DNA from: Escherichia phage S143_2 | DNA: 64,000 nt | Sequence record: MZ189261.1 | Direction: 5' to 3' (one strand) | Shown here: positions 40,828-43,810 of the stretch, in pieces | How the letters are laid out: each line of letters begins with the position of its first letter | Position numbering within the stretch: position 1 is the first letter of the stretch | Position numbers and translations under genes: made by a program | Notes under the pieces: model-generated | The model's input: the letters and a program-made list of their open reading frames with translations, nothing else | Databases searched by the model: none | What the model was told of the DNA's origin: nothing

Positions 40828-41454
40828 TTACTTACGAGTTTTTGCATACTGAGCAGCGTCAGCAGCCAAACGACCTGCCTGACGAAGTTTTTCTTTAATC
40901 GCATCGTGAAGTGGTTGAGTATACTTCAAACCTTCGATAGTCAAATAAAGACGATAAAGGTCTGGGGTGTCAAGGTTGTTGATATGTTGGCCATTACGAA
41001 GAATATTGAATTCACGAACGAGTGAAGATGTATCAGATTCAATATCACGAACAAGCGAAGATAGTTGTTTATATTTTTTTTCCAGGCTAGAAGTATCAAA
41101 CTTAAGAGCAGGAGCTTTAGGAGTTGCTTTTACTTCCGGCTTAGGCTCAGGTTTTGCTACTGCTTTAGGGGTCGCAGGTTTAGGAGTGGTAGGAGCAGGT
41201 TTCACTTTAGGCGAACCCGATTTAGCAGAAACACCACCACTAACAATATCTTTGAATGCTTTAGAAGCTCTGTAATATTCTTTTTGGCTGGAAGTGTCGA
41301 TACCGTACATGGCTTGAACGTTTTTGAAAAACTCTGTACTAGTTTTTGTACCAGAAATAGCATCGTAAGCAGCTTGCCATTTCTCTTTTGTCATACGTAC
41401 ACCGGCTTCGGTGATTACTTCCGTTTCGGCTAAAAATTCATTAAAAGTATACAT
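40828..41454 (-). CDS. Pro/Lys-rich protein with degenerate CTS-like leader
   Basis: 208 aa; N-terminus MYTFNEFLAE resembles CTS; central PKPATPKAVAKPEPKPEVKATPKAP low-complexity linker. Confidence 0.5.
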   Translation of the reverse strand: MYTFNEFLAETEVITEAGVRMTKEKWQAAYDAISGTKTSTEFFKNVQAMYGIDTSSQKEYYRASKAFKDIVSGGVSAKSGSPKVKPAPTTPKPATPKAVAKPEPKPEVKATPKAPALKFDTSSLEKKYKQLSSLVRDIESDTSSLVREFNILRNGQHINNLDTPDLYRLYLTIEGLKYTQPLHDAIKEKLRQAGRLAADAAQYAKTRK

Positions 41455-41498
41455 TGATGGTCCTTAGAAAGTAGGTTTATTGTTTACTATATTTATAC

Positions 41499-41526
41499 AA
41501 AAAAGCCCCAACCTTTCGGAAGGGGC
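41499..41526 (-). terminator. rho-independent terminator (minus strand)
   Basis: interrupted GC-rich hairpin (GCCCC..CC-uuuc-GG..GGGGC) followed by U6 on minus strand. Confidence 0.55.
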
Positions 41527-41829
41527 TATATACCTTGTCGGGGTTCCACCTACTAAGGCAAGTGTTTGTACGAAACGCCGGGGTTCGAACCCGGTTATTA
41601 AGCAGTTGACGCTACTCAATATTTTTAAAAGGCCATATCTCGACCATATCCGAACGTTCCGTCAAAAACGCTACTCGGCTTACGGCAAAGATATTTCCTC
41701 GAATCGATAATTCGGTGCGCCGTTTCTGCTGTGGTGTAAGGGGATATTAACAAATCGTAAAGATTTATTAAGACCAGTCCTTACTCAGGGAACATCAGTC
41801 CGACGACTTACCGGTAGCGACCCGGCTTC

Positions 41830-42174
41830 TTATTTTGGCATATCATCAATTTGCTCTCGACGCCGACGCCATAGATTAATCGCTTCATTAACACATTCGG
41901 CGTTTGGTATATGACGGCAATAATATAATGATTCGCGTTTCTGGAACCGATGTTGCAATGGGATTTCGTTTAAAAGGTCTTTACGGTCAAAGTATTCAAA
42001 ACTAGTTAACCCGGAACGGTTTTTAATGAACTTCCAATGACCGAATTCATTTTGAACATAGATGTAATCTGCGTGTTGGTATAACAAATTAATCAATCGG
42101 TCTGAAATAACTGTATCATGTTCGTTAAAATAAAACGTTAAATCATGAACTACTAAGTAAACATTACCTTTCAT
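41830..42174 (-). CDS. hypothetical protein (start corrected to ATG 42174)
   Basis: 115 aa from MKGNVYLVVHD...; track start 42222 would overlap tRNA-Arg. Confidence 0.45.
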   Translation of the reverse strand: MKGNVYLVVHDLTFYFNEHDTVISDRLINLLYQHADYIYVQNEFGHWKFIKNRSGLTSFEYFDRKDLLNEIPLQHRFQKRESLYYCRHIPNAECVNEAINLWRRRREQIDDMPK

Positions 42175-42192
42175 ATTTTCCTCACTTAAAGT

Positions 42193-42269
<77 letters not shown>

Positions 42270-42273
42270 TATT

Positions 42274-42348
42274 TGGCGGACGTGATAGGATTCGAACCTA
42301 TAACCAATCGCTTAACAGGCGATCGCTCTGCCATTGAGCTACACATCC
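42274..42348 (-). tRNA. tRNA-Asn (anticodon GUU)
   Basis: 75-nt cloverleaf; anticodon stem ATCGC/GCGAT, loop CUGUUAA; T-arm GGTTCGAATCC; encoded CCA. Confidence 0.8.
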
Positions 42349-42352
42349 AAAT

Positions 42353-42439
42353 TGGTGGGGAGTGATGGAGTCGAACCACCCGAGTCGCAATGACAATGGA
42401 TTTACAGTCCACACCGCTACCTCTACGGGATAACTCCCC
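42353..42439 (-). tRNA. tRNA-Tyr (anticodon GUA)
   Basis: 87 nt with long variable arm; anticodon loop CUGUAAA; acceptor GGGGAGT/ACTCCCC; encoded CCA. Confidence 0.75.
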
Positions 42440-42451
42440 TAATTCATAATT

Positions 42452-42526
42452 TGGTGGCCCTGGGTGGAATTGAACCACCATCTGGCGATTATGAGTCGCT
42501 TGCTTGAACCTTCCAGCTACAGGGCC
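42452..42526 (-). tRNA. tRNA with CAU anticodon (Met or Ile2)
   Basis: 75-nt cloverleaf; anticodon loop CUCAUAA; position after Thr corresponds to T4 tRNA-Ile. Confidence 0.75.
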
Positions 42527-42527
42527 T

Positions 42528-42604
42528 TGGTGCTGATTGACGGAATCGAACCGCCGACCTTCTCATTACAAGTGAGTTGCTCTACCTACTGAGCTAAATC
42601 AGCA
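42528..42604 (-). tRNA. tRNA-Thr (anticodon UGU)
   Basis: 77-nt cloverleaf; anticodon loop CUUGUAA; T-arm GGTTCGATTCC. Confidence 0.8.
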
Positions 42605-42608
42605 AAAC

Positions 42609-42698
42609 TGGCGGAGGCGATAGGATTTGAACCTATGAGTCGCCGGAGCGACTGCCGGTTTTCAAGACCGGTGCATTAAACCACTCTGCCACGCCTCC
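42609..42698 (-). tRNA. tRNA-Ser (anticodon UGA)
   Basis: 90 nt with long variable arm; anticodon loop CUUGAAA; acceptor GGAGGCG/CGCCTCC. Confidence 0.8.
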
Positions 42699-42700
42699 AG

Positions 42701-42774
42701 TCTCCATACAAGGATTTGAACCTTGGGCCTCCTGATCCCAAATCAGGCGCTCTACCAAACTGAGCTACACGGAG
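42701..42774 (-). tRNA. tRNA-Pro (anticodon UGG)
   Basis: 74 nt; anticodon loop UUUGGGA; T-arm GGTTCAAATCC; CCA not encoded. Confidence 0.75.
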
Positions 42775-42784
42775 TAAATTAAAT

Positions 42785-42858
<74 letters not shown>

Positions 42859-42863
42859 AAATT

Positions 42864-42950
42864 TGGTGCGAGAAGTGGGACTCGAACCCACAAGGAAATC
42901 ATTCCGCAGCATTTTAAGTGCTGTGCCTTTACCAATTTGGCCATTCTCGC
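42864..42950 (-). tRNA. tRNA-Leu (anticodon UAA)
   Basis: 87 nt with long variable arm; anticodon loop CUUAAAA. Confidence 0.8.
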
Positions 42951-42951
42951 G

Positions 42952-43024
42952 CTGGGAATAAAGGACTCGAACCTTTGCATCCTGGAATCAAAATCCAGTG
43001 CCTTACCAACTTGGCTAATTCCCA
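42952..43024 (-). tRNA. tRNA-Gln (anticodon UUG)
   Basis: 73 nt; anticodon loop UUUUGAU; T-arm GGTTCGAGTCC; CCA not encoded. Confidence 0.75.
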
Positions 43025-43121: not shown

Positions 43122-43415
43122 TTACCATTTATGATAATACATATTTACGATGCAGTCAAGACCCAAAGGATTCTTGAAAATATCATATTCAAGAGGACCT
43201 TTTTCCGTTTCAATAAAGAAATCAAAATTTACTGTATTAAATTTACGGTCTTCCTTCACTAATTTAACTTGAGAAGATGAACGGTCAATGTAAACCTTTT
43301 CAACTTCAAAACATGTTAAAATGCCATAATCATCAATCAAGGCTTTAGCCGCGTCTTGATCATATTTATATCCATTTTCAATAGACGATACTTTAGCATA
43401 AAGAATCATTATCAA
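43122..43415 (-). CDS. hypothetical protein
   Basis: 97-aa ORF upstream of tRNA cluster. Confidence 0.45.
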   Translation of the reverse strand: MIMILYAKVSSIENGYKYDQDAAKALIDDYGILTCFEVEKVYIDRSSSQVKLVKEDRKFNTVNFDFFIETEKGPLEYDIFKNPLGLDCIVNMYYHKW

Positions 43416-43810
43416 CCTTCATCAACAATAGTATGAGTATGAGCATTTACAATTTGCCACCAATCAAAGCGATTAGAACCATACATCAGGTTGTTCTCAT
43501 TTTCTTTGATAATGTCACGGAGTTCATCTTCAGTAGCGGCTTTCGCTATTAAATCAGCATATCCACCGCGAGGATAATAATTATCACCTGCAAAAAGTAA
43601 AAAGTTCGGTTTAATATTATTGAACTCTTCAAGAGTAATAACTTTTCCTGTCGGTTGAACAATCTCTACATATTTATATCCTAATTTTTGAGCAGCATCT
43701 ACTGCTTCAAGCAAAGTATCATGAGCCCATCCAATTTGACAACCTGGCTTTTCAGATGGATTAGCCTGATAATCCGCGTACACTTTATACATTCTATTCA
43801 CCTTTTGCAA
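43412..43810 (-). CDS. hypothetical protein
   Basis: 132-aa ORF. Confidence 0.45.
   Translation of the reverse strand: MQKVNRMYKVYADYQANPSEKPGCQIGWAHDTLLEAVDAAQKLGYKYVEIVQPTGKVITLEEFNNIKPNFLLFAGDNYYPRGGYADLIAKAATEDELRDIIKENENNLMYGSNRFDWWQIVNAHTHTIVDEG

Follow-up and report, generated by a model that had tools for sequence, protein, structure and literature searches.

A tRNA-like hairpin in a stretch of DNA that holds no evident gene raises the question of what is made there: a broken tRNA, a small protein or an RNA in its own right. We addressed this question for a locus of Escherichia phage S143_2 (MZ189261.1), of which a 64,000-nt stretch (the window) was analysed. A preliminary description, made from the sequence, had marked positions 41529–41829 as a single candidate small stable RNA without naming its strand, and had suggested either a counterpart of the two small stable RNAs of phage T4 or a degenerate tRNA. 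The species 1 and species 2 RNAs of T4 have been known since the 1970s. Comparison with T4 bore out the first suggestion: the minus strand of 41532–41835 is about 93% identical to T4 across the annotated rnaD (species 2 RNA) and rnaC (species 1 RNA) genes, with nhmmer E values to T4 of 5e-39 for rnaC and 2.3e-22 for rnaD, and a sequence search with the same stretch matched some 800 phage records. The source phage is a T-even phage of the Mosigvirus type, and the best matches to 41400–42250 were Escherichia phages F27 and moskry (~98.7% identity). Both the strand and the T4 gene order (tRNA cluster, rnaD, rnaC, terminator) are kept. A small stable RNA was therefore rightly suspected, but as two RNAs and a trailer on the minus strand instead of one. 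We conclude that 41499–41833 (minus strand) is very probably the distal end of a tRNA operon, made up of rnaD and rnaC orthologues, a trailer hairpin and an intrinsic terminator. Judged by sequence similarity, the feature is thus of an already known kind; what is added here is a covariation-backed architecture for rnaC and its kissing loop.

Coordinates were derived by pairwise alignment with T4 (AF158101) and coordinate mapping; the ends of rnaC follow the T4 annotation, with an uncertainty of ~1 nt. All features lie on the minus strand. Ten tRNA genes detected with ARAGORN and Rfam (42193–43024) are located upstream of the rnaD orthologue, which spans ~120 nt (41714–41833; aligned to T4 rnaD at AF158101 71053–71171). 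An A/U-rich spacer, GAAUUA (41708–41713), also 6 nt long in T4, separates it from the 139-nt rnaC orthologue (41569–41707), which has three differences from T4 rnaC; the first base of the spacer occupies the place of the A in the ACCA encoded by T4. Downstream of rnaC, folding predicted a 3′ trailer hairpin (41546–41565) that is conserved with T4, where record X03016 carries the annotation ‘pot. stem-loop structure’ under the match. The predicted intrinsic terminator of the tRNA operon, AGCCCCUUCCGAAAGGUUGGGGCU followed by UUUUUU (41499–41527), was read from the sequence and folded. It has the form AGCCCC...GGGGCU plus a U run from 41527 down to 41499, and a simple terminator scanner missed it because of its internal U.U mismatches; the equivalent site of phage G9062 is annotated as a terminator. 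In T4, transcription is reported to traverse all of the tRNA cluster and to stop past the species I gene, yielding one precursor for the tRNAs and both RNAs (PMC2330249).

To define the structure of rnaC, homologues were gathered from GenBank phages, IMG/VR and metagenomes, a covariance model was built, and the sequences were aligned both by the model and independently by MAFFT, which was not fitted to the model. The set comprises 27 distinct sequences from 11 named genera and two unassigned phages, all enteric T4-like, and includes Mosigvirus, Tequatrovirus, Gaprivervirus, Karamvirus, Kanagawavirus, Kagamiyamavirus, Tegunavirus, Moonvirus, Gelderlandvirus and Marfavirus together with Erwinia phage COW86c and Citrobacter phage Ursula. 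Rfam holds no family for rnaC or rnaD, and searching it with the whole window at gathering thresholds and with 41400–42250 at E ≤ 10 returned tRNAs and chance matches (NsiR1, isrK) only; the NsiR1 match merely covers the terminator hairpin. Against the family model built here, the rnaC of S143_2 scored 180.9 bits.

Comparative analysis shows rnaC with the predicted architecture of a four-way junction, consisting of a 7-bp acceptor-like stem, a canonical T-arm, a long arm of ~70 nt and a 10-bp hairpin (hairpin 2); the consensus also contains an A-rich linker between the long arm and hairpin 2. RNAalifold found compensatory changes in 16 of 46 pairs. Among 23 sequences, 95.6% of cells were paired, compared with 37–44% when the partners were slid by 1–3 columns, and double changes occurred in 29 of 53 pairs, a result matched by none of 500 shuffles. 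The MAFFT alignment of all 27 distinct sequences behaved alike (93.7% paired versus 34–46% after sliding).

The individual elements were supported to different degrees. In the acceptor-like stem, the 5′ strand CGAUUCG (41700–41706) is predicted to pair with CGUUUCG (41571–41577); most homologues carry a tandem U.U in the middle of the 7 bp, pair 3 covaries between A-U and G-C (9 versus 18 sequences), and positions 4 and 5 are Watson–Crick in Tegunavirus, which makes the stem fully Watson–Crick there. The hairpin CCGGG-GTTCGAA-CCCGG first noticed on the plus strand is indeed present at 41578–41594, but the T-loop consensus of tRNA better fits the minus-strand reading, CCGGG-UUCGAAC-CCCGG, with a 5-bp stem and a 7-nt loop. 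This T-arm is directly continuous with the 3′ acceptor strand and is 100% paired, with covariation at two of its five pairs (the third pair being G-C, U-A or A-U). The long arm (41630–41699) occupies the place of the tRNA D and anticodon arms and is composed of an AGG...CCU base, three internal loops and an apical hairpin. Its helices 3–5 are 98–100% paired, with compensatory changes in 18 of 22 pairs, and it exists as two unrelated sequence types of the same length, the T4 type and the PEi20-like type of Gelderlandvirus, Marfavirus and Moonvirus. Covariation is silent on the 3-bp AGG/CCU helix because this helix never varies. Hairpin 2 (41596–41621) has a 10-bp stem, nine pairs of which covary, and the 6-nt loop CGUCAA.

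Folding, another check named at the outset, agreed with a structured minus strand: both RNAs are more stable than dinucleotide shuffles, rnaC at −49.6 kcal/mol (z = −4.3; none of 200 shuffles as stable) and rnaD at −34.4 kcal/mol (z = −2.2). Conservation across 11 named genera and two unassigned phages, combined with the many compensatory base-pair changes, indicates selection on the locus as a structured RNA, and this bears on two other readings. One is that the locus is a decayed tRNA gene, or two, a functionless pseudogene in which the T-arm alone survives. The neighbourhood of a tRNA array, the perfect T-arm and the acceptor-like stem of 7 bp speak for this reading, as do the aberrant tRNAs that tRNA finders have sometimes called at rnaC in GenBank records. 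A relic, however, would sit poorly with full-length conservation in the 27 distinct homologues from 11 named genera and two unassigned phages, with 20–29 compensatory pairs that include those of the non-tRNA arms, with a length fixed at 139–142 nt, and with the accumulation of a stable RNA in T4 (PMC9697503). Nor is rnaC specially similar to any of the ten tRNAs of the phage: a search among them for a parent gave local scores of 5–9, with none standing out. The degenerate-tRNA alternative is therefore unsupported; the covariation largely refutes it, and we regard it as very improbable.

The other reading takes the stretch to encode small proteins, as ‘hypothetical protein’ annotations in many GenBank records would have it. 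Coding sequences are annotated here in several records, and mechanical ORFs of 42–76 aa overlap the stretch. Against this, no frame through the rnaC segment is open in all 27 homologues. Close relatives differ by 1-nt indels in the rnaC segment, and the substitutions follow base pairing and not codons. We consider a protein-coding role hardly credible. In public records rnaC is often annotated as hypothetical proteins and few label it as rnaC; in PG7 (locus L160, 647–741) and G9062 (locus L161, 573–668) it appears as an aberrant 95–96-nt ‘tRNA-Met’ or ‘tRNA-???’. Recognizing rnaC and rnaD prevents their mis-annotation as hypothetical proteins or odd tRNAs.

The two hexaloops of rnaC add a further contact to the junction. 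The apical loop of the long arm, UUGACG (41660–41665), is the exact reverse complement of the hairpin 2 loop, CGUCAA (41606–41611), and a helix between them forms 6 of 6 pairs in all 27 distinct rnaC sequences; the loops are also complementary in each of 13 further homologues from IMG/VR and metagenomes. In Marfavirus the loops read UUGGCG/CGCCAA, a compensatory change from A-U to G-C, and in Tegunavirus UUGAUG/CAUCAA, a compensatory change from C-G to U-A. These double changes affect different positions in two separate lineages and provide two independent covariation events in support of the kissing loop. We estimate that, had the loops evolved independently, an exact match in one loop for a change in the other would be expected about once in 18 cases; with two compensated events and no uncompensated change, chance is an unlikely explanation (~0.003 by our own estimate). 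In the stems that carry the loops, covariation is strong (5 of 5 and 9 of 10 pairs), which argues that the hexamers are true loops and their contact a kissing interaction. Together, these comparisons indicate that UUGACG and CGUCAA form a kissing-loop contact.

Whether this contact closes within one molecule or joins two was judged from the geometry of the RNA. Complementary loops are retained in both unrelated long-arm types, with arm lengths fixed to within 1–4 nt, and the spacings are 40–41 nt from the acceptor to loop 1, 48–52 nt from loop 1 to loop 2 and 11 nt from loop 2 to the T-stem. That these distances are nearly fixed even where the arm sequence has been replaced favours an intramolecular contact. 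Alternatively, the loops could pair between molecules to give head-to-tail dimers or multimers, a possibility that we take seriously but hold to be doubtful. Covariation proves pairing and is silent on whether it occurs within or between molecules, and the long arm (~25 bp) greatly exceeds the 10 bp of hairpin 2, so that intramolecular closure would need sharp bends. However, the three conserved internal loops of the long arm could serve as hinges, and the constancy of the arm and linker lengths to 1–4 nt fits a geometric constraint in a single molecule. ColE1 RNA I/RNA II and HIV-1 TAR–TAR* are kissing hairpin complexes with fully complementary loops; rnaC resembles them in having two 6-nt hairpin loops that can pair over their whole length, and differs in carrying both hairpins in one RNA. 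No description of a kissing-loop architecture for rnaC was found in the literature searched.

The remainder of the molecule resembles a tRNA in part. Like a class II tRNA, with its long variable arm, rnaC has a 7-bp acceptor-type stem continuous with a T-arm of 5 bp and 7 nt (UUCGAAY), hairpin 2 lies just 5′ of the T-arm at the position of the long variable arm, and the gene is found inside tRNA arrays with a 3′ trailer of the N-NCA type. In contrast to a tRNA, it lacks a D arm and a 7-nt anticodon loop, has the ~70-nt arm and the 10-bp hairpin with their 6-nt loops instead, contains the tandem U.U in its stem and totals 139 nt. Neither ARAGORN nor Rfam calls a tRNA in 41499–41833, and rnaC gave no match to the Rfam tRNA model RF00005 even at E = 10. 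In joining an acceptor/T-arm module to a non-tRNA body, rnaC is comparable to the tRNA-like domain of tmRNA, to the bacterial Y-RNA-like YrlA and to viral 3′ tRNA-like structures, in which this module lets tRNA enzymes act on a non-decoding RNA; in YrlA the 5′ and 3′ ends form a Ro-binding stem and not an acceptor stem. No tmRNA was detected in the stretch by ARAGORN or Rfam and no tag reading frame was seen, and the tmRNA, Y-RNA-like and viral tRNA-like families had no Rfam match there.

This likeness suggests how rnaC may be matured. The T4 species 1 RNA is an RNase P substrate. The trailer that follows the acceptor strand is U plus (A/U/C)CA, namely UACA in S143_2 and T4, UUCA in Tegunavirus and an encoded UCCA in Marfavirus, and this trailer together with the minihelix points to tRNA-like cutting and trimming. 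In the model that we propose, rnaC and rnaD would be cut from the polycistronic tRNA precursor, and the acceptor/T-arm minihelix would cause host tRNA-maturation enzymes to treat rnaC like a tRNA. We infer that its 5′ end may be made by RNase P and its 3′ end by trimming, possibly with addition of CCA by the CCA-adding enzyme. Such handling would explain both the position of rnaC in tRNA arrays and its stability, while the missing D and anticodon arms would leave it unable to decode. Among the tRNA genes of the operon, tRNA-Pro and tRNA-Gln (42700–42774 and 42951–43024, minus strand) lack an encoded CCA end according to ARAGORN, in contrast to the other eight, and the operon therefore already relies on CCA addition by the host enzyme. 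The tRNA-Tyr gene (42353–42439, minus strand) encodes an unusual class II tRNA whose Rfam tRNA-model score is only 30.2 bits at a threshold of 29, compared with 60–74 bits for the other nine.

For rnaD, the comparison shows a predicted fold in which a 5′ hairpin is followed by a closing stem, and this stem encloses an invariant core together with a central hairpin that can be replaced. The 5′ hairpin (41810–41826) has a 5-bp stem, GCCGG/CCGGU, and the 7-nt loop GUCGCUA; it accounts for the other GC-rich palindrome that had been seen at the locus. It was predicted by folding, and its sequence is invariant, which makes covariation uninformative on its pairing. RNAalifold predicted the closing stem (41715–41807), formed by GUCGUCG (41807 to 41801) with CGGCGCAC (41722 to 41715), which surrounds the invariant core segments GGACUGAUGUUCCCUG and CACAGCAGAAAC and the central hairpin at about 41785 to 41734. 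The 5′ 45 nt and the 3′ 25 nt are invariant among seven homologues, so covariation does not bear on the pairing of most of the core. The central region, by contrast with this core, occurs as three unrelated sequences of 47–54 nt, each of which folds as one hairpin. T4 rnaD has the core in common with S143_2, its central hairpin differing by substitutions and small indels, and the RNA ends in ACC followed by A in T4, G in S143_2 and U in VR25, that is, ACCA in T4 and ACCG in S143_2. At its 5′ end, rnaD overlaps the last 4 nt of the upstream ORF, which contain the stop codon TAA (41830–41832).

A hammerhead ribozyme was considered for the CUGAUG...GAAAC portion of rnaD and rejected: the CUGA.GA motif is absent, position 9 being U; position 7 covaries with the base preceding GAAA and is therefore paired; and no Rfam hammerhead model matched at E ≤ 10. 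In Klebsiella Marfavirus, a short divergent rnaD-like core, AAGUCGUCGAACUGACGUUCCCUG ... CACAGCUUGAAGCGGCGCA, was observed ~440 nt upstream of rnaC. The candidate core of Kpn BM7 (locus L162, 980–1056) is inside an annotated hypothetical CDS, and that of EI (locus L170, 342–418) occupies mostly an intergenic gap and overlaps the start of the next annotated CDS. These cores are without the ACC 3′ end; they suggest that sequence searches may underestimate how widespread the rnaD core is.

The two genes also occur apart. At least seven genera carry rnaC without a full-length rnaD, and Dhakavirus carries rnaD without rnaC, which indicates that the RNAs are not mutually dependent. In Karamvirus, Gelderlandvirus, Kagamiyamavirus, Erwinia phage COW86c and Citrobacter phage Ursula, rnaC stands between tRNA genes, and in Tegunavirus phiR1-RT a tRNA-Trp directly follows it. 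Loop-independent pattern scans, run on IMG/VR and a metagenome collection, recovered no rnaC beyond the enteric T4-like phages, all finds being of the Tevenvirinae type, and no similarity to the E. coli host was detected in 5,426 complete genomes. A structure-specific pattern had 20 matches in GTDB genomes, with ~11 expected by chance, and all failed the covariance model; weak covariance-model matches elsewhere in the loci were ordinary tRNAs in which the T-arm and acceptor alone matched.

Expression of these RNAs has been studied in T4, where RNAC was detected by Northern blot as a discrete stable species of ~140 nt in infected cells (PMC9697503) and a discrete stable rnaD RNA of ~120 nt is known, for T4 only (PMC9697503, PMC3014915). 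Reviews and studies from 2010, 2022 and 2025 describe both RNAs as without known function (PMC3014915, PMC9697503, PMC12685909). During adaptation of a T4-like phage to a semi-permissive host, one convergent SNP arose in rnaD (PMC12685909), which hints at a host-dependent role. It could be argued that the structures lack any role in trans and act only in cis, protecting or processing the 3′ end of the tRNA operon by shielding the precursor from 3′ exonucleases or guiding its cleavage. The RNAs do stand at the operon 3′ end in T4-like and Mosigvirus genomes, just ahead of the terminator, and the operon is a single precursor (PMC2330249). Yet rnaC is placed mid-array in Karamvirus, Gelderlandvirus, Kagamiyamavirus and others, discrete stable mature RNAs accumulate in T4 (PMC9697503), invariant hexaloops and a kissing contact exceed the needs of a protective hairpin, and the convergent SNP in rnaD appeared during adaptation of a T4-like phage to another host (PMC12685909). 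A purely cis-acting role is thus improbable.

We tentatively suggest, at low confidence, that rnaC may mimic a tRNA without decoding and serve as a decoy or sponge, its locked body binding or titrating a tRNA-directed factor of the host or the phage in an accessory and host-dependent capacity. In this view, rnaD may act independently of rnaC as a structured RNA with a swappable hairpin. More speculative still is the complete scheme, in which host machinery would mature the rnaC mimic and perhaps tail it with CCA, the kissing loop would be intramolecular and lock the body in a compact shape, the RNA would titrate or divert a tRNA-directed host factor such as a tRNA-binding enzyme or a defence nuclease that targets tRNA, and rnaD would be a second, independent host-interaction RNA. 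The comparative structure, with its tRNA-like minihelix, two interchangeable long-arm types and covarying loop–loop contact, makes a vague small stable RNA testable, and both rnaC and rnaD merit Rfam families.

Two observations concern the surroundings of the locus. The T4 late-promoter motif TATAAATA occurs on the minus strand at 41490–41497, 43363–43370 and 43671–43678, at a count in the window no higher than chance. The first copy (41497 to 41490) lies directly past the operon terminator and ahead of a 208-aa gene (phrog_2280, start 41454); the other two precede the tRNA cluster, in keeping with the late accumulation reported for these RNAs. On the other side of the two RNA genes, tRNA-Arg abuts rnaD in T4, whereas in S143_2 a 113-aa ORF (phrog_3355; 41830–42175, minus strand) separates tRNA-Arg (end at 42193) from rnaD, and its Shine–Dalgarno sequence begins a few bases past the tRNA. 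For the 113-aa and 208-aa proteins, the only matches were to PHROGs without an assigned function, and Pfam gave none. The place of the 113-aa ORF is empty in T4 and taken by other ORFs in HY03 and sutha, and this variety makes the interval between tRNA-Arg and rnaD look like an insertion hot spot inside the tRNA operon.
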